From Limisphaerales bacterium (GTDB lineage Bacteria; Verrucomicrobiota; Verrucomicrobiia; Limisphaerales; SXTU01): a stretch of DNA of 45,970 nt. Below the pieces are notes generated by a model. It was not told the origin of the DNA. It ran no database searches and was given only the letters and a program-made list of their open reading frames with translations. The position numbers and the translations under genes were made by a program. Below, piece after piece: positions 8,127-44,833 of the stretch (positions within the stretch are counted from its first letter, which is position 1; each line of letters opens with the position of its first letter). The DNA lies in NCBI GenBank assembly GCA_040081795.1, contig JBEBFV010000003.1, positions 1-45,970 of the forward strand. Direction: 5' to 3'.

Positions 8127-9230
8127 TCAAATCCTGACCCGCTCGGCCCCGTCGCACTCATCCTCGTAGTCGTAAAACACCACGGGCGGCGTCGCGGCTG
8201 GCAGCGTCTTCACCGCTGCTGCGCAAGGTGCCAAATCCTCGGTCTGGAGGCGCTGGTAAAGGGTGTGAACGTCGGCGGAGGAATGGCCCACGAACTTCAT
8301 CGCCTGACTTTGGTTGACGCCCGCGCGGGCGAGGCGGCTGATCACTGTGACGCGGCAGCAGTGAAAGCAGTATTGCGGGCGGCCAATCCGGTCGAAAAAA
8401 CGGCGCCAGTGCTTGGAGGCATCCTCCGGAATTTCACAGGTGCGCTCGCGGCCTTCGGCGCGGAGGCGCTCAAAGAGCGGCCGCAGCCGCTCCTGCAAGG
8501 GCACGGTGAACACCTTCTGCCCCTTTTCATGGAACGTGACCGTCCACTGGTCCCAATTCACATCGCGGCGCAAGTCAATTGAGGTCGCGCGCAGCCGCGT
8601 GCCGTGAGCGATGGAAATCTGAAAGCTGACGAACATCCACTCCGGCTCCTGCTGCAGCTCGTCCAAGATCAGGGCAATGTCCGGGCCGCTGATCTCCGGC
8701 TTCTGCGGCGAGGGCTGTTTCGTCAGGCCGGTCTTGTGGCAGGGGTTCCGCTCGCAGAATTCCCGGCGGACGGCTTCGTCTAGCACAATGCCCAGCAGCT
8801 TCACATCGCCCAGGGAGGTATTGTGGCTGGCGGACCGGACGCGGTCATCATCGGGCTGCATCCGCCAAGCATGGTAGGCTAGGACATTGGCATAGCGAAG
8901 CTGACGCGGATGATGGAGGCCGTGGCGCTCAAGAAAGACGGACAAGACGCGCCATGATCCAAGATAGCGCTCCAAGGTCCTTGCCTGGTGCGGCGCACTA
9001 TGGCGGGAACGCAGGAACGGCAAGACCCACGCGGAAAACTTCTCGGTTCCACTGACATTTCGCCCCGTGCGCTCCTTGATGGATTCCTCCTCGGCGAGGG
9101 CGTGGGCGCGTCGCCGGTCCAACCGGTTGTCCTTCCGAAGCACGGTGCTCCGCTGGTGCCATTTGCCATCTGCGCCGCGCGTGCGGAGTTGCAGGAACGG
9201 GCTGTCAGTCTTGGCGACGAGGTGGGCCAT
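8127..9230 (-). CDS. Tyrosine recombinase/integrase (paralog B, convergent with A)
   Basis: HGTRLRA, HEKG, FHCCRVTVISRLARAG, VGHSS, HTLY. Collinear with 7024..8094. Confidence 0.9.
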   Translation of the reverse strand: MAHLVAKTDSPFLQLRTRGADGKWHQRSTVLRKDNRLDRRRAHALAEEESIKERTGRNVSGTEKFSAWVLPFLRSRHSAPHQARTLERYLGSWRVLSVFLERHGLHHPRQLRYANVLAYHAWRMQPDDDRVRSASHNTSLGDVKLLGIVLDEAVRREFCERNPCHKTGLTKQPSPQKPEISGPDIALILDELQQEPEWMFVSFQISIAHGTRLRATSIDLRRDVNWDQWTVTFHEKGQKVFTVPLQERLRPLFERLRAEGRERTCEIPEDASKHWRRFFDRIGRPQYCFHCCRVTVISRLARAGVNQSQAMKFVGHSSADVHTLYQRLQTEDLAPCAAAVKTLPAATPPVVFYDYEDECDGAERVRI

Positions 9231-11730: not shown

Positions 11731-12435
11731 TCAAGTTGTCTGCCGCTCAAGCCGTGCCTTGCGCAGCTTCCAGTCTGGAAGCAGGCGCGTCAGCAGTTCG
11801 TAAAATCGCGGGCCGTGGTCGTGGTGCCGGAGGTGGCAGAGTTCGTGGATGATGACGTAGTCAATGCAATCCACGGGCGCGCAGATGAGCGCCGGGTTGA
11901 GCAGAATCCGGCGGTCAGCGCCGCAACTTCCCCAGCGCCGGGGCATCCGCCGCAATCCAAATCCCTTCGGTGTGATGCCAAAGGGGTGAACTGCTTCGCT
12001 GCATCGCTGGAATCGTTCCGCGAGCTTTTGCTGGGCGCGCCCGCGAAGCCACTTTTCCAACGACGGCGTGGCCCCTGTCTTGTCAGGCTGCTTGTCCTTG
12101 ACGACGATTTCGACCACGCCACGCGACATCCTGATTCCTAACGGGTTGCCTGAGCGAATCCGCAGCCGGTATTGCCGCCCCAAGTAGCGAATGGACTGGC
12201 CGCTCACGCGCCGCTCACTTGGGGCCGGGAGCAAGGCTTCAAACATCCGCTGCTGCCGCAGTATCCACCGCCCTCGCCGGGCCACCCGGCCAATCACGCC
12301 TGCCTCTGCCGCGTGCGCCGGAGCGATGACCTCCACGGCCCCGGAGGGTTGAACGCGAATGGCGAGGTGCTTGACGGCGCGGCGCTCAAGCTGGAACTGG
12401 ATTGTGCGGGTGCCGTATTGCGCTTCGCAAATCAT
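11731..12435 (-). CDS. M48/SprT-like (YgjP/DUF45) metallohydrolase associated with HsdR
   Basis: RRWGSC, LLNPAL, IDYVIIHELCHL (HExxH), HGPRFY. 4-bp overlap with the hsdR stop. Confidence 0.92.
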   Translation of the reverse strand: MICEAQYGTRTIQFQLERRAVKHLAIRVQPSGAVEVIAPAHAAEAGVIGRVARRGRWILRQQRMFEALLPAPSERRVSGQSIRYLGRQYRLRIRSGNPLGIRMSRGVVEIVVKDKQPDKTGATPSLEKWLRGRAQQKLAERFQRCSEAVHPFGITPKGFGLRRMPRRWGSCGADRRILLNPALICAPVDCIDYVIIHELCHLRHHDHGPRFYELLTRLLPDWKLRKARLERQTT

Positions 12436-15400
12436 GCCGTCCCCTTGCTCCCCTTGTAATGCGCCTCCGCAATCGGCAGCACGTCCTTGCCGATTTCATC
12501 CAGCGCGGCCAGCGGCAGGGTGAAGCCGTGCCGCTTGGCGGTGGCAAGCAGACAGTCCTCCGCCGCGTTGAGCATCTGGTTGCGCACGTCCGGGTTGGCC
12601 GTCCAGTTGACGATGCTCGCGAGCTTCGCCACTTCGTCGTCAATCGCCAGGCCCAGCTCCACCCCCACAGCCTCAGCCTCCGCCGGGGACAGCGACTCCA
12701 TCGCGCCCAGCGCCCGCTTCGCCACCCCGTAGTAAGCCCGTGCGGCGGCGCGCTGGTGCAACTCTGGCGGCAGGTCGCTGGTGGCGCGGTCGCGGACCTT
12801 CTGCATGACCTCGCTCACGCTGGCGAGGTATTGCGCGTCCGTGAGCCGCTTGGCGCGGTAGTCCTCGATGAGCCGCTGAAGGATGCGGGAGAAGCGTTCG
12901 TAAAACGCGGGGTCTTCCTCCCACTTTTCACGGATGGTTTTCTCCGTGCGGCTGAAGATGGTGTCGGCGCGGGACGCGGTGCTTTCCAGCTTTTGCACTT
13001 CCGCGTCGAACCGCTCCTTGTCGAAGATGTTCACCAGCGGCGTGAGCTTCGCCACCTCCGTCGCGCCGACGTGCCGGTCAATCAAGGTCTGGATGCGCTT
13101 CTCGTATTCCGCGTAGTCCACTTCCTCGCTGTAACGCTGCTTCATGCGCGTGCGCAGGTTCAGGAAGTATTTCAGGTCGCGCCGATACCGGGCCACGGTC
13201 GCGGCGGGCGTCTGGGTGAAGAAGTCCGACGACGACAGCGCGACTTGGAAGATGCGCGCGAACCGGCTCAGGCGGGCGTAAAACTCGTCGCGCTGGTCCT
13301 GATGTTGCAGGCACGCGGCGAATTGTTCGTCGTCCTGCTGGTTCTTCACCGCGCGGAACAGCGCCCACAACTCCGCGCTGGCGTCCGGCAGCTTGCCCAC
13401 TTCATCGGCCACCGGCGTCAGTGTGGCGGCGAGGTCCGCCGCGTCGTATTCGGCCAGCGCCTCGTAGTGGGTCAGGGCCTCGTTCAAGTCGCCCAAGACA
13501 CCGTAGTAGTCGAGGATGTAGCCGAAGTCCTTGCCCTCGCTGCGGCGGTTCACGCGGGCGATGGCCTGCAAGAGCGTGTGACCCGTCAGTTTCTTGTCAA
13601 TGTAGAGGACCGTGTTGGTGGGGGCGTCGAAGCCGGTGAGCAGCTTGCTGACGACGATGATGATTTGCGGGTCGCCGTCCCCCTTGAAGCGGCTGGTGAG
13701 ACTGTCGTTGTAGCGTTCCTCGGTGCTGAAACGCGCCATCATCTCGCGCCAGAACAATTGCACGCGCGGCAGCTCGCTCTCGGCGCAATCCTCGTTGTCA
13801 TCGCGCGTGTCCGGCGCGGAGATGAGCACTTCAGTGGAGACGCGCAACGCCGGGTCGGTGCGGCCAATTTCATCAATGATTTCCTTGTAACGCAGCGCCA
13901 CGTCTTTCCGCGGCGCGACAAGCTGCCCCTTCGCGCCGGTGCCGGCGAAGGTGCTGGTGAAGTGTTCACAGAGGTCGTAGGCCACCATCATCAGCCGCTT
14001 GTCGGCGCGGTTCAGGTGGTCGGCGTTGGCGAACTTCTGTTTGAAATCCGCCTTCTGGTCCTCGGTCTTGCCGCGCATCAGCCGTTCAAACCAGAGGTCG
14101 AGCTGCTCCTTGTCCACTTCCTGTTCAACGTGCCGGCCTTCGTAGAGCAACGGCACCACCGCCTGGTCACGAACGGCGTGGTCGAGCGTGTAGGTGTGGA
14201 TGAAGTCACCGAAGACCTGGAGGTTGTTCCGCTTCTCGTCATGCACCACCGGCGTGCCGGTGAAGCCGATGAAGCAGGCGCGCGGCAGCGCCTTCCGCAT
14301 CATCGCATGGAACGAACCGAAGTTCGTCCGGTGGCCCTCATCCACCAGCACGAACAGGTTGGGGTCATCGTCAAGCTGGGCGACGCCGCGCACGGCGCGC
14401 TCGAATTTGTTGATGATGGTGGTGATGACCCCGGCCTTGCGGCTCTGAATCAGTTCGCGCAGCTCCTTGCCGTCCTTCGCGCGCACGGGTTCGTAACCGC
14501 AGTAGCGGAACGTGTCGCCAATCTGTTTGTCCAGTTCCACCCGGTCGGTGACGAGAATCAGCCGGGGATTGGGGATGGCCGGATGCAGCGTCAGCGCCTT
14601 CGCCAGCATCACCATCGTCAATGACTTGCCGCTGCCCTGCGTGTGCCAGACGAGGCCGCCCTGCCGGTTGGCGTCCGGCCCACGCTCTTGCACGCGGAGC
14701 AGCGCGGACTTCACCGCCGCATACTGCTGGTGCCGGGCAATCTTCTTCTCCCCGCCGTCGTAAACGATGAACTGGCGGCTCAGTTCCAGCAGCCGCTCCG
14801 GGCGGCACAGCGCATACAGGACGCGGTCCTGCTCCGTCACCGTCCGCTCCTGCAAGATGGGCAGCTCCAATCGCGCCCAATGCAGCTTCACCAGTTCATC
14901 CACGGCGAGCGGCTGGCTGAGAACCTTCAGCACCTCGCCGTCAGGAATCACCTCGCGCCACGACGCCCAGAACTCCGCCGGGGTGCGGGCCGTGGCGTAT
15001 TGCGCGGCCTCGCCATTGATGCCGAGCACGAGCTGGGCATACCAGTAAAGGCGCGGGATGCCGTCCTCGCGCTGGTTGCGGATGTGCTGCGAGATGGCTT
15101 GTTGAAGTTCCTTCTTGCCCCTCGGCTTGCACTCGATGACGGCGAAGGGGATGCCGTTCACGAACAGCACCACATCCACCCGGTAAGTCTCGCGCGTGCC
15201 GGTGCGCTCGACGGTGAATTCCTCGGTGACGTGGAAGGCGTTTTGGTCCCAGCGTTCCCAATCCACGTAGCGCAACGTGAAGCTGCGCGTGTCGCCCGCG
15301 ACCGTCTGGGGGAAGCTCTTGCCCAGCGACAGCAGGTCGTAAAGTTTCTCGCTCGTCTGAATCAGCCCCTCATCCGACAGGTCGCGGACGGCGGCGATGC

Positions 15401-15644
15401 CGGCTTCGATGGCCTCCGATGAAAACGGCTGCTCCTGACCTCGCCAGCGCACGCGGTTCAGCTTGGATAACTGCTCGTGCAAAATGGGCGCGAGAATCAC
15501 TTCCGACTTCCGCCCGCCGCGCAACTGCAACGCCTCGGCAGGCGGCAGGTAGCGGAAGCCCAGCTTCATCAGCAGTTCCACGGCGGGAATCTGCGAGACG
15601 AGCTTTTCGCGCGTGTCGGGCGTGGTGGATGATTCAGTGGGCAT
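12432..15644 (-). CDS. hsdR: Type I restriction endonuclease subunit R
   Basis: Nuclease motif VDVVLFVNGIPFAVIECK, Walker A HTQGSGKS, DEGH box, GFTGTP, LLTGFDAP, LLQAIARVNR. 1070 aa. Confidence 0.97.
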   Translation of the reverse strand: MPTESSTTPDTREKLVSQIPAVELLMKLGFRYLPPAEALQLRGGRKSEVILAPILHEQLSKLNRVRWRGQEQPFSSEAIEAGIAAVRDLSDEGLIQTSEKLYDLLSLGKSFPQTVAGDTRSFTLRYVDWERWDQNAFHVTEEFTVERTGTRETYRVDVVLFVNGIPFAVIECKPRGKKELQQAISQHIRNQREDGIPRLYWYAQLVLGINGEAAQYATARTPAEFWASWREVIPDGEVLKVLSQPLAVDELVKLHWARLELPILQERTVTEQDRVLYALCRPERLLELSRQFIVYDGGEKKIARHQQYAAVKSALLRVQERGPDANRQGGLVWHTQGSGKSLTMVMLAKALTLHPAIPNPRLILVTDRVELDKQIGDTFRYCGYEPVRAKDGKELRELIQSRKAGVITTIINKFERAVRGVAQLDDDPNLFVLVDEGHRTNFGSFHAMMRKALPRACFIGFTGTPVVHDEKRNNLQVFGDFIHTYTLDHAVRDQAVVPLLYEGRHVEQEVDKEQLDLWFERLMRGKTEDQKADFKQKFANADHLNRADKRLMMVAYDLCEHFTSTFAGTGAKGQLVAPRKDVALRYKEIIDEIGRTDPALRVSTEVLISAPDTRDDNEDCAESELPRVQLFWREMMARFSTEERYNDSLTSRFKGDGDPQIIIVVSKLLTGFDAPTNTVLYIDKKLTGHTLLQAIARVNRRSEGKDFGYILDYYGVLGDLNEALTHYEALAEYDAADLAATLTPVADEVGKLPDASAELWALFRAVKNQQDDEQFAACLQHQDQRDEFYARLSRFARIFQVALSSSDFFTQTPAATVARYRRDLKYFLNLRTRMKQRYSEEVDYAEYEKRIQTLIDRHVGATEVAKLTPLVNIFDKERFDAEVQKLESTASRADTIFSRTEKTIREKWEEDPAFYERFSRILQRLIEDYRAKRLTDAQYLASVSEVMQKVRDRATSDLPPELHQRAAARAYYGVAKRALGAMESLSPAEAEAVGVELGLAIDDEVAKLASIVNWTANPDVRNQMLNAAEDCLLATAKRHGFTLPLAALDEIGKDVLPIAEAHYKGSKGTA

Positions 15645-15660: not shown

Positions 15661-16119
15661 CTAATTCTCGCCGGGGGAGTAAGCCGCCTTGGGTTCGTCT
15701 GTCTTCTCAGTCGTGTGATTCGCGGATGGTCCCAGCCACTTGCCGGTCAGCAGAAACAACTCGTAGAAGACGAGCCATTCAGCCACCCACGGGATGACGG
15801 TTTCGTGCAAATGCCACTTGTTCTGCCAAGGCTGCTCACGCCAGTCGTAGAGGCAAAGCGTGTCGTTCCGATACATGTGCGCGCCGGACGTGAACTTGAG
15901 CGCTGGCTCGATGACGCGGATTTCAGGTGAACTCCACGGCTGGTATTTTATTTCCACGCGGTAAGGCGCGCTGTGCTCAGTCGGCTGAATCCGCCCGCGA
16001 CACGTCAACTCCTGCCCACGAATCCGCGCATGGAGGCCGGGAAAACTCCGCCGGACGAGCGCCTGCTCACAAACGACCTTGTGATAGCGGTCAGCTTTGT
16101 TGGTGGGGATGGTCGCCAT
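15661..16119 (-). CDS. Stand-alone prokaryotic E2 (ubiquitin-conjugating-like) protein of short type II CBASS
   Basis: GRIQPT...YRVEIKY...PEIRVIEP...HMYRNDTLCLY...W...TVIPWVAEWLVFYELF...GKWLG matches the CBASS E2-only family (catalytic Cys in LCLY). Overlaps the CD-NTase 3' end. Confidence 0.85.
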   Translation of the reverse strand: MATIPTNKADRYHKVVCEQALVRRSFPGLHARIRGQELTCRGRIQPTEHSAPYRVEIKYQPWSSPEIRVIEPALKFTSGAHMYRNDTLCLYDWREQPWQNKWHLHETVIPWVAEWLVFYELFLLTGKWLGPSANHTTEKTDEPKAAYSPGEN

Positions 16120-17200
16120 AGAACTTGTGCGGTAGGTTCAGCACGCCCGCGCCGATGGCGGCGCGGACAATCACGCCAGCGCTGTTGGTCGCCGCAACTC
16201 CCGCGTTCACCAGTGCGGCATTGGCAAAGAGCGTGCGCGTCTTCCCCTTGTCCTTGTCGTAAGCCTCGAAATACCCGTCGCTCTGGAACACCCAATCCCA
16301 CGCGGCGCGAGCCTGCCCAGGTTTGCAGTCCGAACGGTGGAGGACATTCAACTGCGCCAGCGCCTCTCCGACGCGCGTGCGCAACTCCACCATGTTCCCG
16401 TCGCTTGGCGACTTGGTAAGCTTGTCCTTCGGCCACTTTGTCTGCGCCCGGTTCTCCACTTCCAAGTTCGTCGCGAGCCGGTCCTTGAGCCGGGCGAGCA
16501 GCCAGTAAAAGCACTCGTCATCCCGCTGGTATTGGGTTTGCAGGCACTCTTCGGTGAGCATCGTAAGCTTGAGGCCGTTTGGCAGGTCCCAATCCTTGCC
16601 CCGGCTGCGGGCGAATCGCTTCATCATCCGAATCATCACGCGGAGCTGGGAGCCAGCACCGGCGCGCTGCTTGTTGAGCGCCTGAACACGGTCCAGAAAC
16701 CAGCGATTGATTTCAGTCGGGTCGGAGAGATTGAACCCCGCTGCCCCGGCCAACTCTTGCCGCTCCTTGTCTGTGTCCGCATCGAGCTTCCGATAGGCGG
16801 GCACGTCAACATGGTGGCCCGCCTCGTAGAAGATGCGGACGCAGTTGTTGTGAATCTCCGGCTGCTTGTTGAATCGGTCGTCCTTCAAGGCATCACGCAC
16901 CATCACTTGCGTGTCCATCGCGCTGTAGGCCGCACCGTCCTTCTTCTTCAAGTCGTCCGCGTGGAACCACACGCCGTCGTCAATGTCGTAGGCGTTATCC
17001 TTCTCCTGAACCGTCGTCTCAATCGCCATTGAGCCTTGCGGCATGAAGTGATTGTCGTTCAACCGGATGGTGTCGGGGCGGTTGGCTTTGAGCCGGTTCC
17101 GATTGGCGGCGCGGTGGTCGCGCAACTTGTCTTTGACTGCCTGCGGCAACGCAACGCAGTCGGCTTCGTAGGCTTGGATTTGTTCGTTGTAATCAAACAC
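16091..17200 (-). CDS. cGAS/DncV-like nucleotidyltransferase (CD-NTase) of CBASS
   Basis: PQGS...T...YDIDDG catalytic motif, CVRIFY...HVDVPAYR, SDP, QLRVMIRMMKRFA, and a C-terminal tail ...PHKFYG-DHPHQQS. GTG start with GGAGG RBS. Confidence 0.92.
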   Translation of the reverse strand: MFDYNEQIQAYEADCVALPQAVKDKLRDHRAANRNRLKANRPDTIRLNDNHFMPQGSMAIETTVQEKDNAYDIDDGVWFHADDLKKKDGAAYSAMDTQVMVRDALKDDRFNKQPEIHNNCVRIFYEAGHHVDVPAYRKLDADTDKERQELAGAAGFNLSDPTEINRWFLDRVQALNKQRAGAGSQLRVMIRMMKRFARSRGKDWDLPNGLKLTMLTEECLQTQYQRDDECFYWLLARLKDRLATNLEVENRAQTKWPKDKLTKSPSDGNMVELRTRVGEALAQLNVLHRSDCKPGQARAAWDWVFQSDGYFEAYDKDKGKTRTLFANAALVNAGVAATNSAGVIVRAAIGAGVLNLPHKFYGDHPHQQS

Positions 17201-17969
17201 TGTGACCTCCTTGGTCTGGCGGACGGTTCGCTAGCTGATTGGCGTAGGCCATCCAGTCCACCGCCGGAACCGTGGCGAGCGACTGGAGTTTCCACAACAG
17301 GCGGAAGGCGAAATAGGCCAGCGCGTTCTCTGGCGGGCCAAAGGTGTATGCGTTCGGCCCGGCGAACGTGTCGAAGCTCGCGCCGCTCGCGGCGAAGCCG
17401 CAGTCAATCTTCCGCTCGTTCAGCAGGCCGGCGTGAGCTTCCCGAAACGACTCGCCGAACCCGTCTTTCCAGTCAACCTCGATGGCGAGGATTCCAGCCA
17501 CGATGTCGAAATGCTTTTTGGCAGCGAACACGCCGCCCGCGTGATGGATTTCAACTGAAGTGCGCTTGAGCTTCCTCACTGAAGCAGCCTTGTCCGCCGC
17601 ATATTCCAAGTAGCCCTTGTCAATCGTCGGCTTGCACTCAAAGACGGCGTAAACGGCTTCGGCTGGCACGTAGCGGTGCTTGTGGTTGTCCAGCAAGGTC
17701 GGTGTGTATTGCCGGTCGAAGACCACCACGTCTATCGAGTCGCTGACGTTGCCTTCGCTGTCGAGGACAATGGCCTTCTCGATTGTGTAGCGGTTGGGCA
17801 GGTATTTGCGGAGGAAATCAATGCAGTGCTGTTCGTTGACTTCCCCTCGGTCGCCCGCGTGCGAGATGCGCTTGGAGGATTTCAGTTGGGCCTTCAAGCA
17901 ATCCTGCTCAGTGGCGAAGGCTTGCCGTAGGAATTCTGCGTTGTGCGGCGTGTTCGTGTCGTTGTTCAT
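17193..17969 (-). CDS. nucC: NucC-family cyclic-oligonucleotide-activated endonuclease (CBASS effector)
   Basis: H-GDRGEVNE, YLPNRY, DSEGNVSDSIDVVVFDRQYTP, VPAEAVYAVFECK, SVRKLKRTS--I-HAGG and C-terminal TVPAVDWMAY are collinear with E. coli NucC as I recall it. Confidence 0.93.
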   Translation of the reverse strand: MNNDTNTPHNAEFLRQAFATEQDCLKAQLKSSKRISHAGDRGEVNEQHCIDFLRKYLPNRYTIEKAIVLDSEGNVSDSIDVVVFDRQYTPTLLDNHKHRYVPAEAVYAVFECKPTIDKGYLEYAADKAASVRKLKRTSVEIHHAGGVFAAKKHFDIVAGILAIEVDWKDGFGESFREAHAGLLNERKIDCGFAASGASFDTFAGPNAYTFGPPENALAYFAFRLLWKLQSLATVPAVDWMAYANQLANRPPDQGGHSV

Positions 17970-19132
17970 GGCTGTTTGGTTTTAACGCGGACCTTGCCGG
18001 TGAGGAGCTTCTGCATGAGGCCGCGCTTTTGGAGTTTCAGGGCGGCCAGTTCGGTTTCGAGCAGGCGGATTTCGCGGTCGCAGGCGTCGAGCACGCTCAC
18101 GATGCGTTGCTGTTCCTCAATGGTGGGCGGCAACTGGATGTGATGCTTCAGGAAGTCCTTGGAATCGAAGATGAGCTTCTCGACGTGAACGCCGTCGCTG
18201 GCGAGGAAGGCGAGGTGCCACATGCGGCGCTGATGACAGAGCCAGTCGAAGAAGGGCATGTGCAACACGTCGGGCGCGCGGTTGACGAGGATGGAGTATT
18301 CCTTGGAGACGTGGCAGCCAGCGAACTCGTCCGTCACCATGCCCCAGGCGCCGTGGACAACCTGCCGCTTGGAAATCAGGAAATCACCGCTGCGGACTTC
18401 ATGCAGGTCGGTGGTCTTGTAGTCCGCGCCGAGCAAGTCTCCACGGCGGAACAGGCCGCCACAACGACGGCGGATGCTGATGAGGTGGAACAGGCGGTCA
18501 GGTGCCCAATCCACCGGGCGGAAGACGTGCTCCAAGACAGCGCCCAACTGGACGCGCCGCCATTTGCCGCGACCAAACTTGGGGAAGCGGCGGGTGCCGG
18601 TGAGGAGATGTTCGCGCAAAGCGCGCATGCGCTCCGTCTTGGTCGTCACCGTTGCTTGCAGCTTTTCAATGGCCTGGTCCCAAGTCGCAAGAATTTCGGC
18701 TACACGCTTTTGTTCGCGTGAAGCCAGGGCGACGAACGGGGTGTCGAGGATAACGTCGCGGGAGATACCCGGAATTAACCCCGATGCTACGGCTTCATAT
18801 CGGTGTCCATTGGCGAGAAGGACTTGGTGAACAAAATTGGCATCCCATGATTTCGGACGGACAGCCATCAACTGCCGACCAATGGCATAGCGTCGGTCAG
18901 CGCGAACGACTGCGCCGGTGCCTGAACCCTTTACGACCACCAGAATATCCCCAGCTTCGCAAAACGCTCGACCAGTTCCAGTGAATCGTTCCGCGTTTGG
19001 TTTCCCGTTCAGAAAATCCGTCGGGCCAGTCAAATACGGAATCCCGCGCTTCTCGAAAGTTAGTTCAGCGCTTTCGATGTGCTGACCCGAAATCAGTTGG
19101 ATGTCGTCACCAAGCAAGCTGTGGCGGCTCAT
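17966..19132 (-). CDS. hsdS: Type I RM specificity subunit S
   Basis: Two TRDs separated by conserved regions (EQKRVAEILATWDQAIE; LPPTIEEQQRIVSVLDACDREI...KRGLMQKLLTGKVRV). Confidence 0.93.
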   Translation of the reverse strand: MSRHSLLGDDIQLISGQHIESAELTFEKRGIPYLTGPTDFLNGKPNAERFTGTGRAFCEAGDILVVVKGSGTGAVVRADRRYAIGRQLMAVRPKSWDANFVHQVLLANGHRYEAVASGLIPGISRDVILDTPFVALASREQKRVAEILATWDQAIEKLQATVTTKTERMRALREHLLTGTRRFPKFGRGKWRRVQLGAVLEHVFRPVDWAPDRLFHLISIRRRCGGLFRRGDLLGADYKTTDLHEVRSGDFLISKRQVVHGAWGMVTDEFAGCHVSKEYSILVNRAPDVLHMPFFDWLCHQRRMWHLAFLASDGVHVEKLIFDSKDFLKHHIQLPPTIEEQQRIVSVLDACDREIRLLETELAALKLQKRGLMQKLLTGKVRVKTKQP

Positions 19133-20640
19133 AGTCCAAGCTCCTTGAGGTAGCGACCAATCTCCTTCCGCACGCCGACGAGTTCGTCTTCAAGCCGGGT
19201 GATTTCCCGCTGCACCTGCTTCAAGTCCACCGGCGCTTCCGCCTCGAACGTGTCCACGTAGCGCGGGATGTTGAGGTTGAAGTCGTTCTCCTTCACTTCC
19301 TCGAACGTGGCGCGCTTGGCGTATTTCGGCACATCCTCGAACCGGCGCACGGTCTGGACGATTTTCTCAATGTCCTGCGGGCGGAGCTTGTTCTGGTTGG
19401 TGCCTTCCTGATATTCGCGGCTGGCATCCACGAACAGGATGTCGGTGCCGCGCCTCGCCGCCGGCTTGCCCTTGTTGAACAGCAGAATCGCGGCGGGGAT
19501 GCCGGTGCCGTAAAAGAGGTTCACCGGCAGGCCGATGACGGCTTCCAGCAGGTTTTCCTCGATGAGCGCCTGACGAATCTTCCCCTCCGCCGCGCCCCGG
19601 AACAGGATGCCATGTGGCACGATGACGGCCACCCGGCCAGAGCCAGCCTTGGCGACTTCGACCATGTGGGTGATGAAGGCGAAGTCGCCCCGGCTCTTGG
19701 GCGGGATGGCGCGGTGAAAGCGGCCGTAAGGGTCGGCGGCAGCCTTGTCGGCCCCCCACTTGTCGAGGGAGAAGGGCGGGTTCGCCACCACGATGTCGAA
19801 CTTCATCAGCCGGCCATCCTCGACGAGCTTGGGGGAATTGATGGTGTCGCACCACTCGATGCGCGCGGCGTCGAGGCCGTGGAGGAACATGTTCATGCGC
19901 GCGAGCGCGTAGGTCTGGTTGTTGTTCTCCATTCCGAAGACGGCGACGTTCTGGCTGCCGACTTCGCGCGCGACCTTGATAAGCAGCGAGCCGGAGCCGC
20001 ATGACGGGTCGCAGATTTGGTGGCCCGGCTTGGGGGCAAGGAGCTTGGCGAGCAGCGTGGCGACTTCGGAGGGCGTGTAGAACTCGCCGCCCTTCTTGCC
20101 CGCGTCGGAGGCGAACTGGCCGATGAGGTATTCGTAGCAGTCGCCGATGATGTCGCTGGGATTGCTGCCGAGCGTCTTGGGCCGGAGGTCGAGCGGGGCG
20201 AAGTCTTCCAGCAGGTGTTTCAGGCGGCGATTGCGGTCGCGCGTCTCGCCCAAGTGGACCTCGGAGTTGAAGTCAATTTTGCGGAACACGCCGTCGAGCT
20301 TGGCCTTGTTCTCGTCCTCGATGGTGTCGAGCGCGCCATTGATGAGTTCGCCGATGCTGTCCTTGTCCCGGCTGGCATAGAGCGCGTCGAACGTGGCGGA
20401 CTCCGGGATGATGAAGCGCTCGCGGGCGAGGCGGCGCTGAACCATCGGCTCATCCTTGGGGAACTGCGCGCGGAGTTCCTCGATGCGCTGGCGGCGCACG
20501 TCGCTGAGGTATTTCAGGAACAGCATCGTGAGGACGTAGTCCTTGTAAACGGACGAGTCCATGACGCCCCGGAAGGTGTCGCACGCCTTCCAGGCAACGC
20601 GGTTGATTTCGTCTTTTCGGTCAATGGTGGTGTCAGGCAT
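19129..20640 (-). CDS. hsdM: Type I RM methyltransferase subunit M
   Basis: WKACDTFRG, GKKGGEFYTP, DPSCGSGSLL (motif I), VANPPFS (motif IV), PHGILFRG, FNLNIPRYVD. Confidence 0.97.
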   Translation of the reverse strand: MPDTTIDRKDEINRVAWKACDTFRGVMDSSVYKDYVLTMLFLKYLSDVRRQRIEELRAQFPKDEPMVQRRLARERFIIPESATFDALYASRDKDSIGELINGALDTIEDENKAKLDGVFRKIDFNSEVHLGETRDRNRRLKHLLEDFAPLDLRPKTLGSNPSDIIGDCYEYLIGQFASDAGKKGGEFYTPSEVATLLAKLLAPKPGHQICDPSCGSGSLLIKVAREVGSQNVAVFGMENNNQTYALARMNMFLHGLDAARIEWCDTINSPKLVEDGRLMKFDIVVANPPFSLDKWGADKAAADPYGRFHRAIPPKSRGDFAFITHMVEVAKAGSGRVAVIVPHGILFRGAAEGKIRQALIEENLLEAVIGLPVNLFYGTGIPAAILLFNKGKPAARRGTDILFVDASREYQEGTNQNKLRPQDIEKIVQTVRRFEDVPKYAKRATFEEVKENDFNLNIPRYVDTFEAEAPVDLKQVQREITRLEDELVGVRKEIGRYLKELGL

Positions 20641-21244
20641 GGATAAATTGGAGGTTGGCCCAGCCGCGCAGCAGCGCCCGGCGTGTGGTGGTGAGTTGGT
20701 TCATCAAATTGTGCTCGTGCTCAATCAGCCCGTTCAGCTCGGTCACGCGCTGTTGGACGGCGATGGGCGGCAGGCGCAGCGGCAGCGCGCGGAGCACTTC
20801 CAGCGCAATCATGGGGATGGTGGTGCCGGAGTTGTTCGCGTGAAGGAAGGTTTGGGCTTCCTCCTGATTCAGCAGCCACGCGAGGAAGGCGGGATGGACG
20901 CGGCTGGTGTCCGGGCGCATGACGTGGAAGCTGCCCGCGACGATGGTTCGGGCTGGGACTTCGGAGCCGACGGGAACGGCGTAGTTGCGCGGGCCGCGAC
21001 ACATCAAGATGACATCATCGGGGCGAAGCAAATGGTCGTCGAGATTGCGAACTTCATCGGGCGAGATGCACACCAGCCCACCTTCGGCAGGCGCGACGCG
21101 AAGCCGGTCCGAATCAACATCACGACCTTGGATGACCGCAACCGTGCCGTCTGCATGATGCCGAACCCCCACGCGAAATGGGTATCCCGCCCGAAGCGAG
21201 GCGACTTCGGTAACGGTCAGCCAGTTCAATCTTCCGTCTATCAC
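20633..21244 (-). CDS. Single-TRD (half) HsdS-like protein upstream of hsdM
   Basis: VASLRAGYPFR, LRPDDVIL--RG, PAFLAWLLNQ, LPLRLPPIAVQQRV. 8-bp overlap with hsdM. Start uncertain (GTG 21244). Confidence 0.8.
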   Translation of the reverse strand: MIDGRLNWLTVTEVASLRAGYPFRVGVRHHADGTVAVIQGRDVDSDRLRVAPAEGGLVCISPDEVRNLDDHLLRPDDVILMCRGPRNYAVPVGSEVPARTIVAGSFHVMRPDTSRVHPAFLAWLLNQEEAQTFLHANNSGTTIPMIALEVLRALPLRLPPIAVQQRVTELNGLIEHEHNLMNQLTTTRRALLRGWANLQFIHA

Positions 21245-21426
21245 AGTATCGAGTATCGGGCAGTTTTTATGTTTCGTCAAGGGCGAAAACGACAGAATCT
21301 TGATACTGTTGAAACAGGCCAAAGCGAACCAGTGCAAATGTGATTCAACATCGGAAACAATCTTCGTTCCGGCCTTCGTTTACAAATCTGTGTGCGGACG
21401 GTAGCGGCACGGTAGAATCCCCGGTC

Positions 21427-21845: not shown

Positions 21846-24602
21846 CTACGGCTCAACTAGGCGGAAGTATTTCGCCCCCGCCCCGACGGGCTGAACGATG
21901 CTGATTACCCCGCCGTTGGTCTGGAAGCCCCCGGCTACGTTGCTCCAAGAAACAGGGAGTGCAAGAGTCGCTGCCGATTCCAGCCGGTAGCGCCCTGCCG
22001 TGGCAGGCCAAAGCACGGTCAGGTTGTTGCCACTGAAAGCAGTGGTGATGGTGGGCGGCGTTGGCAAGGCATCAGTCAGGTTGGGGACGCCGTTGCTGTC
22101 GGTGTCGTTGAGGTCCGTGAATTCAAACACCCAATTCAGGTGGTCAGTCCAAGCGGTGCGCGCATCCCCGTCCGAGAACGTCAACGCGCCCACGTAGCGA
22201 TTGCCAGTGCGGTTGAACGTGGCGGCTTGCACCGTGTAAACGGAACTGTCCGTCGCGTTCGTCAGCGTGAACGAGGGCAAGGTGAACTGGCTGGTTGTAA
22301 TCACCGTGAAGGTGGTCGTGCCGGTCAGGGAGAAAACCACCCCGGCGTTGGTGCGCTGGCAGGAGAAAGTCATCGTGTTGAGCGCCCCGCGTGTGTAGCT
22401 GATGGAACCGGTGTAGCACTGCAATTCCAAGACCCCGGTGATGTTCAATTGCGTTCCGCCAGTAGCCAAGTCCACGACGTTGTAGGTTCCAGTGAGTGAG
22501 TTGGCGTTGCGGGTCAGACTGCCTGTGATTGGAATCGTGGCGATGGACGGAAAGTCGCGTTGGTAAGAGCCGGTGATGCTGCTGGCTCCCGCCTTGTTCA
22601 ACTGCGCAACATCGGGCAGGCCGTTTCCGTCGGAGTCGGTTGTCGGGAGGGTTAGAACGACACTGCCGTAATAGGCGAAGCTGTTGTCGCCATTGTTCAC
22701 GGTCGCGGAATCCGCCTCGTAAACCCCGCCGCCACGCGGTCGCAATTCACCACTGTAAAGGAAAATGCCCGGTGACACGGCCTGGCGCCATGGGCTTCCA
22801 GCTAGTCCGTCGTAGGTTGTGAAATTGAGCGTTGTGTTCGGAGGGTTCACCATAGCCGCCGACCGTAACAATAGCGACTGGCATTGGCCGCTGAGGGTGG
22901 CGGTGCGGGTCTGGGCTTGGACAACGGTGGAGCCAAGGGCGTTCGTGACGGATAAGGTAGCCGCTTGGCTGGTCACGCTCCCCGCGATGTTGGTAATCAC
23001 CACGCTGTAGCTGCCCGCGTCGCCAAGCTGCACGTTGGTTATCGTCAGGCTGCTGATGGTCGCTCCTGCGAGAACCGCGCCGTCTTTGCGCCACTGATAG
23101 CTCAAGGGCACCGTGCCCGTGGCTGTCACGCTGAAGGTGGCGTTGGAGGTCAAGTTCACCGACAAGCTCTGAGGTTGGCCGGTGATGCTGGGCAAAATGC
23201 CAGAGACATTGAGCGTTCGGCTTACGCTGACCGCCGGCAGATACGTCGCATCGCCGGGTTGACTGGCTGTAATGGTAGTGCTGCCGACGCCTGTGAGCGT
23301 AACGGTGCTTCCGATCACGGTTGCCACGCCGGTGTTGGAACTTGTGTAGCTCACTGGCAAACTGCTGCCGGTCGTGGCGTTCAGCGTGAATGGTGCGTCG
23401 GTAGTCAGTTTGGGAGGCAACACGTCAAACGTGATCACCTGAAGCAATCGGCTAACGGTGAGGTTGGCCGCGCTGCTCGTTGCCGTGCCGTAGGGATTCG
23501 ACACGACCACGGTGTAGCCCCCAGCCTGATTCGTGGCGACGCTGCCAATGCTGTAGTTGGCATTGGTTGCATTCGGAATGTTAGAGCCGTTGAAGCGCCA
23601 CTGGTAGGACAACGGACCTGTCCCTGTGGCGCTGCTAGTGAGGTTGACCGCCGAGCCAGCTAGAACGGCTGTATCGTTTTTTACGGCTAAGGTGAAAAAT
23701 GTGCCGCCTGCTACGGCGGTGAAATTGCTGTAGCCAAAGGGCACGCTTGCTTCTCCTCTGATAGAATAAGAGGGCCAAGCAACGAGCGTTCCATCACTCT
23801 TGAGTGCCAAGCTGTGATAGAGGCCGGCTGCAATTTGGACCACATTGCTCAGGCCACTCGGGGGAGGGTCGAGGTTTGATTCGTTCTGCCCCCAGCTCAC
23901 TACAGTTCCGTCACTTTTGAGGGCAAGATTGTTGAAGCCACCTGCTGCGATTGCGACAACGTTGCTTAGTCCGCTGGGAGCTACTCCTTGGCCGTATGTG
24001 TTAACACCCCACGCGACGATTCTTCCATCGCTCCGCAAGGCAAGGCTCTGACCGTAGCCCGCACCGACTGCGGTTATCCCGGTCAAACCACTTGGCACAT
24101 TCGTGACGTTGGAAAAAGGATACCCCCAAGCGAATACTGTCCCGTCATTTCTCGAAGCGACGTTGTAGAAATCACCAGAAGCTATGCTGGTCACGTTCGT
24201 CAAGTGTGCAGGCACTGTGGCCTGCCCGTAGGTGTTGTCGCCCCATGCAACAATGGTTCCGTCGGTCTTCAGCGCCAAACTGTGATACCGGCCCGCCTTA
24301 ACACTCACCACGTTTGTCAAGCCAAAGGGTGGCGTGATTTCGCCGGAAGCATGATTGCCTGCCCATGCCGTGACCGTTCCATCGCTCATCAAAGCCAAGG
24401 CGTGAGACTCACCGGCAGCGATTGCCACCACACCGCTCAACCCCGTGGGCGGCACGGGGAGATATGTGCTGTCGCCCCAGCCAACCACCTGCAAATTTGC
24501 AGGCTGCCGCGTAATCACGGGCTGGGTATTCACCGGCATTGTCTGGGAGCGGACAACGGCAACCGAAGCCAGCAAAAGGAAAATGGTAATCAGGCACTTC
24601 AT
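21846..24602 (-). CDS. Secreted/surface protein: RCC1-like repeats, Ig-like domains and a C-terminal verrucomicrobial-type domain
   Basis: Signal peptide, ~7 repeats of VAIAAG--HSLALKSDGTVVAWG, two I-set-like domains (PLSYQWR-NG...AG-YTVVVSN), DSDGNGLPD/DTDSNGVPN motifs, C-terminal YRLESA...W...KYFRL. Confidence 0.88.
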   Translation of the reverse strand: MKCLITIFLLLASVAVVRSQTMPVNTQPVITRQPANLQVVGWGDSTYLPVPPTGLSGVVAIAAGESHALALMSDGTVTAWAGNHASGEITPPFGLTNVVSVKAGRYHSLALKTDGTIVAWGDNTYGQATVPAHLTNVTSIASGDFYNVASRNDGTVFAWGYPFSNVTNVPSGLTGITAVGAGYGQSLALRSDGRIVAWGVNTYGQGVAPSGLSNVVAIAAGGFNNLALKSDGTVVSWGQNESNLDPPPSGLSNVVQIAAGLYHSLALKSDGTLVAWPSYSIRGEASVPFGYSNFTAVAGGTFFTLAVKNDTAVLAGSAVNLTSSATGTGPLSYQWRFNGSNIPNATNANYSIGSVATNQAGGYTVVVSNPYGTATSSAANLTVSRLLQVITFDVLPPKLTTDAPFTLNATTGSSLPVSYTSSNTGVATVIGSTVTLTGVGSTTITASQPGDATYLPAVSVSRTLNVSGILPSITGQPQSLSVNLTSNATFSVTATGTVPLSYQWRKDGAVLAGATISSLTITNVQLGDAGSYSVVITNIAGSVTSQAATLSVTNALGSTVVQAQTRTATLSGQCQSLLLRSAAMVNPPNTTLNFTTYDGLAGSPWRQAVSPGIFLYSGELRPRGGGVYEADSATVNNGDNSFAYYGSVVLTLPTTDSDGNGLPDVAQLNKAGASSITGSYQRDFPSIATIPITGSLTRNANSLTGTYNVVDLATGGTQLNITGVLELQCYTGSISYTRGALNTMTFSCQRTNAGVVFSLTGTTTFTVITTSQFTLPSFTLTNATDSSVYTVQAATFNRTGNRYVGALTFSDGDARTAWTDHLNWVFEFTDLNDTDSNGVPNLTDALPTPPTITTAFSGNNLTVLWPATAGRYRLESAATLALPVSWSNVAGGFQTNGGVISIVQPVGAGAKYFRLVEP

Positions 24603-25483: not shown

Positions 25484-25559
25484 CGCCCGGCGGGCGCACT
25501 TCGGGTGAATGTAAACAAAGAGGGGTGTGCTTCTACGGTGCCGGTTTGTAGGCTGGCCC

Positions 25560-26528
25560 GTGAATACTACCAGCCTGTCCCTGACGCCGGTTCGCGCCGG
25601 TTCCGTGGCGCGAATTTCCCCCACCCACAGCGATCTTGTTCGTGCCTTCCTGTCTGGCCGGAACGAGCGCACCCTGCGCGCCTACTCCCAAGATTTGGCG
25701 GACTTCCAAGCCTTCGTCGCGGCCAAGTCGGTTGACGACGCCGCGCGCGAGCTGCTGGGCAACAGCCACGGCGCGGCGAACCTCTTGGCGCTGGCCTACA
25801 AGACTCATCTGGTGGAGCGCGGCCTGCAATCGGCCACCGTCAACCGGCGGTTGGCGGCGTTGCGGTCACTGGTGAAGCTGGCGGGCACGTTCGGCTTGGT
25901 CCCGTGGAAGCTGGAAGTGGCGAACGCCAAGACGACGGCCTACCGCGACACGCGCGGCCCCGGCAAGCAGGGCGTGCGATGCCTGTTGGAAGCGGTGAGC
26001 GGCCAGCGGGGCAAGCCAGCGGCGCGGAACAAGTTTGCGCTCCGGTTGCTCTACGACTTGGCCCTGCGGTGCGGTGAGGTCGTGGCGCTGGATGTGGAGG
26101 ACTTGGACTTGGCGCAAGGTCGGCTGGCCGTGCGCGGCAAGGGCAAGACGGAGAAGCAATGGCTCACCTTGCCAGAGCCAACCAAGGCAGCAGCGGCGGA
26201 CTGGCTGGCAGCACGCGGCGCGGACGCCGGGCCGTTGTTCACCAACTTCGACCGTGCGGGCAAGGGGCGACGGCTCACCAACGTGAGCCTGTATCGCATC
26301 GTGCGTGGGCTGGGCGAGCAGCACGGCTTGAAGGTGCGACCCCACGGCTTGCGACATACAGCGATTACTGAGGCGTGCAAGGCGGCTCAGGCAAACGGCT
26401 TTGGCTTGGAGGAAGTGCTGGATTTCTCCCGGCACAGCCGGAAATCCATCGCGGTGCTGATGGTTTATCGTGACAGGGAGCGCAACGTGCAAGGCCAACT
26501 GGCGTCACTGGTGGCGGGTGCAGCCTGA
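25560..26528 (+). CDS. XerC/D-like tyrosine recombinase
   Basis: TLRAYSQDL, SATVNRRLAALRSL, LALRCGE (R), RGKGK (K), PHGLRH, SRHS, MVYRD (Y). Start approximate. Confidence 0.92.
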   Translation: MNTTSLSLTPVRAGSVARISPTHSDLVRAFLSGRNERTLRAYSQDLADFQAFVAAKSVDDAARELLGNSHGAANLLALAYKTHLVERGLQSATVNRRLAALRSLVKLAGTFGLVPWKLEVANAKTTAYRDTRGPGKQGVRCLLEAVSGQRGKPAARNKFALRLLYDLALRCGEVVALDVEDLDLAQGRLAVRGKGKTEKQWLTLPEPTKAAAADWLAARGADAGPLFTNFDRAGKGRRLTNVSLYRIVRGLGEQHGLKVRPHGLRHTAITEACKAAQANGFGLEEVLDFSRHSRKSIAVLMVYRDRERNVQGQLASLVAGAA

Positions 26529-28453: not shown

Positions 28454-31400
28454 CTATCCCTTCCCGCCCTTCGCCCGCGCCTCCCGAATCATTGCCAAAG
28501 CCTGCTGCGCTTTCTTGGTATGCGGGTTCTCCGACCCCAGCTTGGCCAGATACCCTTGCACCGCCCGATCCGCCAGCGGCTCTGCTCCGGCCAAATCGCC
28601 CTTGGTCGCCATTAGGCTGGCCAGATTGTTCAGACTCATCAGCGTGTTTGGGTGCTCCGGGCCGAGGGTGCGCTCGAGGGTGGCCAGCGCGCGCCGATGC
28701 AGCGGCTCCGCCCCAGCCAGGTCGCCCTTGTCCTTCAGCAGGGTGGCCAGATTGTTCAGGCTCGACACCGTGGCAGGATGTTCCGGCCCCAGCGTGCGCT
28801 CACGAACAGCCAGTGCGCGCCGACACAGCGGCTCCGCCCCGGCCAAGTCGCCCTTGCCTAATAGCAGGTTGGCCAGATTGTTCAGGCTCGACAGCGTGGC
28901 GGGGTGCTCCGGCCCCAGCGTGCGCTCGCAGGCCGCCAGCACGCGCTGAAACAGCGGCTCCGCCCCGGCCAGGTCGCCCTTGCCTTTCAGCAGGACGGCC
29001 AGATTGTTCAGGCTCGACAGCGTGTCGGGATGCTCCGGCCCCAGCGTATGCTCGCGGACCGTCAGCGCGCGCCGATGCAGTGGCTCCGCCCCGGCCAAGT
29101 CGCCCTTGGCTGATAGCAGGCCGGCCAGATTGTTCAGGCTCCCCAGCGTGCCGAAATGCTCCGGCCCCAGCGTGCGCTCGCAGGCCGCCAGCGCGCGACG
29201 ATGCAGCGGCTCGGCAAGTGCATAGTTCCCCATCTGTGCGTGGATAATGGCGATGCATTCCTGTTCGGCGGAAAGCTCGCACCGCTCCTTGGATTCCGAC
29301 TGGCGGATCATCCCCAGCAGGCTGCCCCAGTGCGGTTGGAGGGCGGCATAGCGCGCCGGCCCGCCGGGCACGGCGTGGTTTTCATAACAACGCTTCAAGT
29401 CCTTCCACCACCAAGCGCGCCATACGCGGATTATGGCTCTGCGTCGAGGTAGTCCGATTGGCGCCCTACCGTCACCGACGCGCTGCCGCGCGTTCTGGTC
29501 GAGCGGCAGGTCGGCTCCGCCAGACCGAATGCCCAAATTGACAGACCATTGGTCACGCGCCCACTCCCCGAGCAGGGAATGCGTCAACTGCCAAGCGGGT
29601 TCGGTTTGCCCAATTTGCTCACTCGGAAACTGACTCCCCTCCGCGAGGCTGTAGTGAACCAGGGCGTTCAGCATGGTTCTGACTGTTTTCTCTGGCTGCT
29701 CCAGCACGCCGCACAGAACGGCCAGTGGCACGGGCGCGTGACCATGCAGCGCCAGCCCAAACCACGCCTCCAGAGCTTTCTTGTGCTTCCGGACGACGGC
29801 TTCGGCGCTATGTTGGAAGAGCAGATGGAGATTTGCTTTCTGTTTGTCCTCAGCAGCCCAGTCCCCAAACCGCTCGGTTTGCAGACGGTCGGCAAATTCC
29901 TTTAGCGGTTCACTCTGGTTTTGCATCCACGCGCCCGCGAGACGCAGGGCGAGCGGATGTCGCCCAAGCTCACCAGCCAGTTTCCTCCAGGGTTCCCGCA
30001 TGGCGTCGTCGTCGGGGAGGCTGGCCTGGAGCGCATGGTTGTGGAGCAACTGCGCGGCGTCCTCGATGGCAAGCGGGTGGACTACATACGGGTGGGCGTC
30101 ACCGCGCTTTTGCTTGTCGCGCGTTGTGAGGAGGACACGGACCTGCCCAGTAAGCTCAAGTAGTAGGGAGAGTTCATCGGCCTTCTCACAGCCTTCGAGG
30201 TAGAGGAGCACGCCCGACCGGCTAAAGAGGCGGCGGACCTCGGCGGTGGGATCAGTGACCGTGCGCAGGTCCACACCCGCCTGCCCGAGCAGCCCCGCGA
30301 GGGCGGCTTGGTGCCCGCTCTGCCGGTAGTAGTCGTGGATGTAGATGCCGCCGGGATAGCGGGACTCCGCACCGGGCGTCGGCGCAAGTTTGAAGAGCAC
30401 TTCCGCCGCGAGGGCGGTTTTTCCCATGCCACCGGGGCCAACCAGCGCGATACGTTGGTATTGGTCGAGCAACTTGGCCATGTCGCGCAACTCGTCCGCA
30501 CGTCCAGTGAACCCGACGGAGCGCGGCGGCGGGTTCCAAGGGAGGATTTTGGGCTGAGTCAAACCAACAGCCTCATGGAAGGTCGCCTTGAGTTCCTCCT
30601 TTGCACTTCCTACGACCTCCTCCACATGCTTCCGCGACTGGCGATGTTGTTGAGCGTTGTCCTCTATGACCAACTCAACTGCGGCAACCAAGTCATCGGA
30701 GAGCGTGGGGCGCAGCAGAGCCAGCAGAGCAGGATTGTTTTTCTGGATTTCGGCAAACACGCGCTGAATGACATTATCAAGGAGCGCAGTGCCGGGGTGT
30801 TCGGCGTCTGCCGCCCGCCGCTCCAAAGCCTCGCGCAGCAGAGCAAGCTGCGCGGAGATTAGTTTCAACTCGGCGGACTGCGTCGCGAGCTGCGCGGACT
30901 GCTCGTCGAGCTTGGCATTGGCTTGGCTGAGGAGTTCGCGCGTGCGCTTGTGCAGCCCACCCTGAAAGGCAATCCAAGCGCGTTCGTTCTTCTTAAGCTC
31001 GTCCCACAAATGCACCTCGAAGACGGGCGGGAACTGCTCGGCAAACCACTTGCCCGACACCGACAAAGCCCGGAAGAAGTGCGCGCTCAGTGGGAGTTCG
31101 CCTGTGCGCGCACCCGTGAGCTGCGGGTTCGGTTCCAAGTCCGCAAAGGCGCGGATGGCGGACTGGTCGAGGGTTTCAATCCAGTCGGCAATCGTCTGCG
31201 AGGCGGGATTGTCGCCATGATTTTTGAGCCAGCCCTCGCACTGCTGTGCGAACTCAGCAAGAACCTGCTCGGTGTCCCTGCTCCCGCGCTGCTCAAGTGG
31301 CAATTCCTGCCAGTCCTTAATCAACGCGACCAGCGTGCGGGTCGTCGCACGGGTCAGGGCGTGCTCCAGATCGTGGTTGAGGCCCGTCGTGGTGTGATGG

Positions 31401-31642: not shown

Positions 31643-31751
31643 GATGGTTATGAAAGTAGAGATACAATGCTGTGCCGACAATTTGTAAATGGCTCACGGT
31701 CACGGGGACTTCACATGGAATATCGCGGGGCGTTTGTAGGAGCCGGCGGCT

Positions 31752-36784: not shown

Positions 36785-36985
36785 CGATTGCGTTACAAGA
36801 TGACATAGCCACGCCACGCGGAGCGGCATACATACGAGGCAGCATTCGCCTCCTTGTTGTGCAAGCGGCCACAGACTGTGAAATGTGGCGGGGGGTCACT
36901 ACTCCTTCGCTGCGCTGCCCCGGACTCGTCCGTCCGGGCTGGCCTCGCACGGTGGCGGCTGGCCAGTTCAAACCGCACTAATTGC

Positions 36986-44683: not shown

Positions 44684-44750
44684 GCGCGCCCTCCTGTCCG
44701 GACGACGCACCGCCGCCAAGCGCCGTCCGCTTCGGCCTCGCGTCCGGCTT

Positions 44751-44833
44751 TGGACAAATCTATGGACAAACGCTGTCCTTCTTTGTCCATAGAACTCCCT
44801 GCAAGCACGGCCTGCGCAGTCCGCGTATGGACA
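44751..44833. repeat. Cluster of TGGACA motifs including a perfect 12-bp inverted repeat
   Basis: tctatggacaaa (44759-44770) / tttgtccataga (44782-44793), plus direct copies at 44751 and 44826. Confidence 0.6.

Follow-up and report, generated by a model that had tools for sequence, protein, structure and literature searches.

A lone-E2 CBASS module between hsdS and hsdR in a Limisphaerales bacterium, with the E2 start codon inside the Tyr-Gly codons of a masked cyclase

Introduction

When a cyclase and a lone E2 are encoded inside a type I restriction-modification (R-M) operon, to which protein does the E2 link the cyclase, and how does the mask on the C-terminal glycine of the cyclase relate to the E2 start codon that lies across it? 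Both questions are raised by a locus of a Limisphaerales bacterium (contig JBEBFV010000003.1), which we analyzed in its window, the whole stretch of DNA of 45,970 nt. A first-pass annotation of this DNA had described an E2-only conjugation module and proposed that its target could be the cyclase itself or a co-translated Hsd subunit. Our analysis indicates that the lone E2 likely links the cyclase to itself rather than to restriction proteins.

Results

Gene order and genomic surroundings

The genes of the locus lie on the minus strand of the window, in the order half-size hsdS-like gene, hsdM, hsdS, nucC, CD-NTase (the cyclase), E2, hsdR and the gene for a YgjP-like peptidase (Table 1). Apart from the junction between cyclase and E2, 5 of the 6 junctions are overlaps of 4-8 nt, and hsdR comes next after E2 across a 16-nt gap. 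The half-size hsdS-like gene was also seen in several related loci. Elsewhere in the window we found the end of a BREX cluster with BrxL and a type B PglZ, adjoining a YhcG/DUF1016 gene (40311-45928, minus strand), as well as serine and tyrosine recombinase genes and ParB/RepB genes (8127-9230, 25527-26528 and 36854-40289); considering these genes together, the contig resembles a mobile defense island. The minus strand further encodes a protein with RCC1 repeats and an immunoglobulin domain (21846-24602) and an NB-ARC and TPR protein (28454-31681).

The operon contains no gene for Cap2 (E1) or Cap3 (JAB), and a BLAST search of the assembly, which is 91.6% complete, with the Cap3 of a relative gave no match, in agreement with the earlier reading that both are absent. 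The same search with the relative's Cap2 returned a single partial match (27% over 190 aa) that covers the ThiF part only. At the profile level, the assembly yielded 3 sub-cut-off matches to Prok-JAB and 4 matches to ThiF, all of them on other contigs, and 0 matches to Prok-E2_B, a profile for which the control genomes were equally blank. Exactly one E2 of the lone-E2 family and one CD-NTase were found in the assembly by profile search, both of them in the window.

Table 1. Features of the window and of related loci (locus handle before the colon)
Feature	Position	Strand	Basis or remark
Half-size hsdS-like gene, upstream of hsdM	20633-21337	-	Pfam and PADLOC; extra to the full hsdS
hsdM	19129-20640	-	Pfam and PADLOC; context, outside the conjugation module
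hsdS	17966-19132	-	Pfam and PADLOC; context, outside the conjugation module
NucC endonuclease effector	17193..17969	-	PADLOC NucC, E 4.4e-92; Serratia NucC 7ZGV, E 1.7e-80
CD-NTase, 369 aa, CdnB-like	16091..17200	-	Pfam PF21654; closest PDB match 7LJO
Cyclase C-terminal helix and strands (residues ~318-359), candidate E2-binding motif	16124..16249	-	Secondary structure of the model
Cyclase Gly362, predicted scissile and conjugating residue	16115..16117	-	Invariant in 82/82 aligned cyclases
29-nt dual-coding overlap (E2 start, tail DHPHQQS, cyclase stop)	16091..16119	-	ORFs; ATG in the same place in 46/52 junctions
Lone E2, UBC fold, E2-CBASS, 152 aa	15661..16119	-	PADLOC, PDB sequence match, Foldseek
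E2 His81 (HMY)	15877..15879	-	Aligned to Serratia catalytic H87; invariant in 81/81
E2 Cys89 (LCLY)	15853..15855	-	Aligned to Serratia catalytic C101; invariant in 81/81
E2 His135	15715..15717	-	Likely counterpart of Serratia H152 (pH sensor); 79/81
hsdR	12432-15644	-	Pfam and PADLOC; context, downstream
YgjP-like metallopeptidase	11731-12435	-	Pfam and PADLOC; context, downstream
Second CD-NTase after E2	L008:9617-10618; L024:1603-2754; L083:3441-4430
Second CD-NTase after E2	also L025, L028, L034, L051, L058, L060, L070
Second CD-NTase after E2, plasmid loci	L094:2918-3790; L096:2880-3737
HNH-domain gene upstream of nucC	L011:6664-7095; L012:2757-3179; L014:4678-5124; L017:1817-2263; L029:1426-1872

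The lone E2, the cyclase and the effector

The window E2 is matched by the PADLOC CBASS E2 models (best E 1.6e-39), and its only PDB sequence match is the Serratia E2 (8HSB_B; E 3.3e-07 with the single sequence, 3.6e-17 with a profile). Structure prediction (mean pLDDT 87) upheld the UBC/E2 fold, since the top Foldseek matches of the model are the Serratia E2 structures (8YJY_B, TM 0.69; 8HSB_B, TM 0.67), followed by eukaryotic E2s. The proposal that the cysteine of LCLY is catalytic is likewise supported by its alignment to Serratia C101 and its invariance among the 81 aligned homologues (86 were returned, and 5 short or partial ones were excluded), although the alignment of the window and Serratia enzymes spans only ~100 residues. 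His135 is probably the equivalent of Serratia H152; its distance from the conserved Trp exceeds that of H152 by one residue, and it lies outside the HMM alignment. The window E2 has K139 and K144, but the position of the Lys is not conserved among homologues, and 24/81 have no Lys after the conserved His. Considering that the acceptor Lys of the E2 is not positionally conserved, the resting state may differ from that in Serratia.

The active-site motifs of the cyclase are intact (QGS, D72/D74/D132). By both sequence and fold, its best PDB match is the Bacteroides fragilis CdnB 7LJO, with the 8YS-series CdnB structures also matched, and the Serratia cyclase SmCdnG (8HSB_A) matches only at E 0.0024; on these best structure and sequence matches we assign the cyclase as CdnB-like, not clade G. 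Gly362 was scored in 82 cyclases, picked from 120 listed of 717 matches as being full-length and having the tail type of the window. The earlier classification as a short type II (lone-E2) CBASS with a masked conserved Gly is supported. The description of the C-terminus as a flexible Ala/Gly-rich tail, on the other hand, did not hold: the model predicts a helix at 318-332, short strands at 336-338 and 344-346 and a 2-residue bridge, at a falling pLDDT (~63-88), and disorder is confined to 357-369. A C-terminal helix with a three-stranded sheet is described as the E2-binding motif in PMC12948482, and the predicted helix and strands would fit it. In our alignment, one Cap2-linked sister and the tail-less second cyclases discussed below do not have this C-terminal region. 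As the Serratia NucC is cA3-activated (10.1101/2022.06.20.496707), the product of the window cyclase is likely a cA3-type signal, judging by the NucC effector alone.

The E2 start codon inside the Tyr-Gly codons

The cyclase ends in ...LNLPHKFYG-DHPHQQS, with F360, Y361 and G362 encoded at 16123-16115, and the E2 ATG (16119) is made up of the AT of TAT (Tyr361) and the first G of GGC (Gly362); both the tail and this placement of the start codon, reported in the first-pass annotation, were confirmed from the ORFs. All 7 masking codons fall within the 29-nt overlap. From the preceding in-frame stop, 6 codons upstream, to residue 38, the E2 frame contains no other ATG, GTG or TTG, and this ATG lies upstream of the first predicted helix (residues 8-25).

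For comparison, we used 89 related loci in addition to the window. A pattern for the tail matched 55 junctions, of which 3 exact duplicates were dropped to give 52; the loci outside this set are Cap2-type, truncated or frameshifted. The ATG lies within TAT-GG in 46 of the 52 junctions, and the other 6 have an ATG, GTG or TTG within 6 nt. The junction Tyr is encoded by TAT in 46/49 junctions, versus 131/409 for the other Tyr codons of the same genes. As the relatives are not independent, codon columns were also compared within these genes: among 63 conserved two-fold columns, that of the junction Tyr has the largest T-ending fraction (0.94), with the other 8 Tyr columns ranging from 0.12 to 0.41. 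In 23 in-register junctions, most of them from close relatives, the wobble position of the E2 codons is the most variable within the overlap (0.77 bits versus 0.49 and 0.26), which suggests that constraint acts on the E2 frame. These codon comparisons indicate that the E2 start codon inside Tyr-Gly is under selection. Its simplest role would be to couple the translation of two proteins that associate 1:1, and after its first letter the tail would largely be carried along by the E2 frame.

The conserved TAT could alternatively mark a recoding site, at which a frameshift at Tyr-Gly would produce a cyclase-E2 fusion. Such fusions do exist in nature (PMC12948482), the PADLOC model PDLC00816 spans both domains, and all 52 counted junctions place E2 in the +1 frame relative to the cyclase. 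However, the 6 junctions without that ATG keep a start codon nearby, as predicted for a start codon, and distant systems have other frames or no overlap; at L046, which the tail pattern missed and which has a 4-residue mask, the E2 ORF opens at the stop codon of the cyclase and in a different frame. Recoding is therefore almost certainly not the explanation, and we retain the reading as a selected start codon. Our literature search found no description of an overlap between E2 start and cyclase tail, although supplementary CBASS operon tables may list such loci, and the accessible part of the Serratia preprint (10.1101/2022.05.25.493364) mentions neither an overlap nor the start codon nor transpeptidation.

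The masked tail and the type of partner

In the lone-E2 junctions, a mask of 1-8 residues follows the Gly in 52/52 distinct cases, with D or E as the first residue in 50. Among 120 listed of 717 cyclase matches, 93 have the motif followed by 1-15 residues, and none has it with zero residues following; of the remainder, 22 have a free FG end, 1 ends in FGE and 4 have other termini. We also analyzed 18 distant plasmid loci, picked for taxonomic spread from 40 listed of 81 plasmid E2 matches. The cyclase is clearly masked in 16 of these, ambiguous in 1 (L093) and without a Gly near its end in 1 (L104); the ATG is placed as in the window in 4/18, and a mask of 1-2 residues occurs without any overlap in 5/18. 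The ambiguous case, a Nostoc plasmid E2-CBASS (L093:1-2914), has a ThiF-family gene ~0.8 kb upstream, and its cyclase has a masked FHG motif yet a terminal Gly.

In Cap2 loci, by contrast, the cyclase ends in a free Gly (18/21) or in Ala (3/21, one of them FG+SHA), in a set of 21 that contains several near-duplicates; a Pfam check of the genes of these loci recovered ThiF in 15/15 and JAB in 11/11 tested. A mask with a lone E2 and a free Gly or Ala with Cap2 suggest that the tail is a leaving group for ATP-free ligation, although the split partly follows cyclase lineages in a quick, unfinished tree search. In other words, we infer that the tail is kept because, without E1 and ATP, the Gly-X bond would serve as the acyl donor of a transpeptidation. 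In Serratia, however, linkage was reportedly unaffected when E407, the only masking residue, was deleted (10.1101/2022.05.25.493364), which argues against a strict need for the mask.

It had further been stated that the 7 masking residues are encoded by the overlap. Strictly this is correct, but the overlap leaves room for an unmasked end: a stop codon directly after the Gly, seen in 0/52 junctions, keeps the E2 frame open in 48/48 codon combinations. Considering also the plasmid loci that are masked without an overlap, the overlap is not the cause of the mask.

Relation to the type I R-M genes

We then asked how tightly the module is linked to hsd genes. The 47 full-length masked loci comprise 14 hsd-positive ones (including the window), 10 hsd-free ones and 23 with too short a flank. 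A locus was called hsd-free only if its flanks reached 2.5 kb or more upstream and 2 kb or more downstream, and hsd-positive loci were taken at any flank length, which biases these counts toward the hsd-linked class; duplicates (L018, L027, L049), a split locus (L080) and a frameshifted one (L050) were not counted. R-M embedding is thus frequent, at 14 of the 24 informative loci, and beyond casual adjacency. Given how common embedding is, co-regulation or layered defense is plausible.

A closer tie would exist if an Hsd subunit (HsdR, HsdM or HsdS) were the protein to which the E2 ligates the cyclase: the CBASS would then guard the R-M enzyme, as PrrC or Ronin do, and fire when a phage blocks restriction. 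The placement of the module in a compact operon, with hsdS on one side and hsdR on the other, speaks for this idea, as do the proportion of hsd-linked loci and the existence of guards embedded in type I R-M systems (10.1101/2024.01.29.577857). However, PrrC is reported to be nearly always R-M-embedded and RonA always hsd-linked, and the E2 module shows no such near-obligate linkage, 10 of the 24 informative loci being hsd-free. Cyclases about 77-79% identical to that of the window occur in both hsd-linked and hsd-free loci, and no hsd gene was found within about 2.5 kb in any of the 18 plasmid E2 loci, whose gene tables are incomplete.

The site itself also receives other genes. The hsdS-hsdR gap and its surroundings carry differing extra cargo in L003, L005, L008, L022 and L056, which varies by locus among Schlafen AlbA_2, TrlF/Ppl-like ATPase, YhcG, Mrr, TIR and HEC-07-like genes. 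At one locus (L091:1597-3332, minus strand) the order is hsdS-nucC-cyclase-hsdR, without an E2, and the cyclase has a long C-terminal extension, which may resemble an AGS-C domain. The hsdS-hsdR site is described as an insertion hotspot (PMC12255303; 10.1101/2024.01.29.577857).

The frequency of hsd-free loci, the variable cargo of the gap and the E2-less NucC and cyclase pair at L091 all go against the earlier suggestion of an Hsd subunit as target and physical link to R-M, and we regard ligation to Hsd proteins as extremely unlikely. Nothing in these gene neighborhoods points to Hsd as a substrate, and the module appears independent of the hsd genes. It is better read as cargo in the hsdS-hsdR insertion site, which would share transcription with the hsd genes, not chemistry. 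A physical link between CBASS and R-M would be of far greater consequence, but the comparison of loci speaks against one. No description of CBASS within hsd operons was found in our literature search; supplementary operon tables may list such loci.

Two-cyclase loci and other observations in related loci

A second CD-NTase gene directly follows E2 in 10 of the 45 E2 loci with enough flank and in 2 of the 18 plasmid loci, 12 in total (Table 1). The seven that we aligned have intact QGS and Asp motifs and are without the C-terminal motif and the terminal Gly. In a first group, the second cyclases share 52-57% identity with the first cyclases of their own loci and 24-28% with the Bacteroidota copies, suggesting that the second cyclase arose independently at least twice. 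The same two-cyclase layout was seen in a Cap2 locus (L085:4537-8930), where a first cyclase ending in RFA is followed by Cap2, Cap3 and a tail-less cyclase. Two-cyclase CBASS was not described in the literature that we searched, although supplementary operon tables may list such loci. The tail-less second cyclase is a candidate conjugation acceptor or second-signal enzyme, and the recurrence of this layout around E2 in related loci is of modest added value.

These loci bear on whether the E2 might trim the cyclase and pass it mainly to an acceptor other than the cyclase: another host or phage protein, or the second, tail-less cyclase where present. Besides the recurring second cyclase, the E2s that have no Lys after the conserved His would fit this alternative, and Cap2 systems do conjugate to non-self proteins, for example PspA in Bacillus (PMC11153139). 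In Serratia, however, mass spectrometry identified the larger species mostly as cGAS (10.1101/2022.05.25.493364), and, with only one CD-NTase found by profile in the genome of the window, the acceptor in this case is not a second cyclase. We therefore consider a main acceptor other than the cyclase unlikely. A broader version, in which the tail powers ATP-free transpeptidation onto a non-self partner, namely Hsd in R-M-embedded loci (making the CBASS a covalently tethered guard) and the tail-less cyclase in sister loci, strikes us as very improbable. Linkage of the cyclase to itself remains the preferred reading.

In addition, ORFs of 345-383 aa occupy the effector position, upstream of the cyclase, in 4 related loci (L056:6903-7997, L009:2156-3190, L066:737-1825 and L089:357-1505). 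They have no Pfam, NCBIfam or PADLOC match and are possible unrecognized CBASS effectors. A small HNH-domain gene was seen directly upstream of nucC in several hsd-free loci (Table 1).

Discussion

The locus represents an E2-only CBASS, in which NucC is combined with a CdnB-like cyclase and a single E2; by homology, it probably acts via a Serratia-like mechanism. The anatomy and its conservation are observed here, and each chemical step is modeled on the Serratia system and on NucC biochemistry. The E2 would bind the C-terminal motif of the cyclase, and His81 and Cys89 would cut after Gly362, freeing DHPHQQS; the Serratia E2 cleaves even long C-terminal fusions such as MBP and GFP (10.1101/2022.05.25.493364; PMC12948482). 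At rest, the cyclase would be held on the E2, either as a Cys89 thioester or through an isopeptide bond on an E2 lysine. Infection would shift the linkage to cyclase-cyclase chains, activating the cyclase, and its cyclic trinucleotide would turn on NucC, leading to destruction of the cell's DNA and abortive infection. The acceptors reported for Serratia are E2 K159 and cGAS (10.1101/2022.05.25.493364; PMC12948482), and by homology with that system the cyclase itself, which had been proposed before, and also an E2 lysine are the likely acceptors.

The closest known system is thus the E2-CBASS of Serratia marcescens (SmCdnG-SmE2; PDB 8HSB, 8YJY, 9KKB), which likewise combines a CD-NTase with a lone E2 and has no E1 or JAB. 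The two share the E2 fold, in which His81/Cys89 of the window align to H87/C101, a conserved Gly after Tyr with an acidic mask, and a helix-and-strand motif at the cyclase C-terminus, which in the window cyclase is predicted. They differ in the cyclase (clade G in Serratia, CdnB-like in the window), in the effector (2TM-SAVED in Serratia and NucC in the window), in the lack of an exonuclease gene from the window module, in the length of the mask (1 residue and 7), in the position of the acceptor Lys, which is not conserved, and in the embedding of the window module in a type I R-M operon. Clade G makes up 74% of E2-CBASS and is therefore typical rather than defining, and the window cyclase is not closest to CdnG. 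With B. fragilis CdnB (7LJO), the family profile aligns over residues 22-363, tail motif included, and the 7LJO chain ends in H-x-N-Y-G plus one residue, although identity in the fold alignment is only ~22%.

The E1E2/JAB type II CBASS also conjugates via a C-terminal Gly or Ala of the cyclase and is used by sister cyclases 36-61% identical to that of the window, but it requires Cap2 and Cap3, which are absent here; its cyclases have a free Gly or Ala end in 21/21 loci, and one aligned member is without the C-terminal motif. In position and orientation, the module, which adjoins YgjP-linked type I R-M genes, equals other defense cargo embedded between hsdS and hsdR (DarTG2 in EPEC, PrrC in EcoprrI). 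PrrC, however, is almost exclusively embedded and kept inactive by the R-M enzyme, whereas the E2 module is often free-standing.

As both the type of system and its chemistry have already been published, the central result is an ordinary one. What it adds is a CdnB-like, NucC-coupled branch of E2-CBASS. Its mask of 7 residues is large and could readily be followed by intact mass, the loss of DHPHQQS amounting to a computed difference of about 830 Da. The state of the tail, which in our data tracks the type of partner without exception in one cyclase lineage, offers a natural test of how a lone E2 pays for ligation without E1 or ATP.
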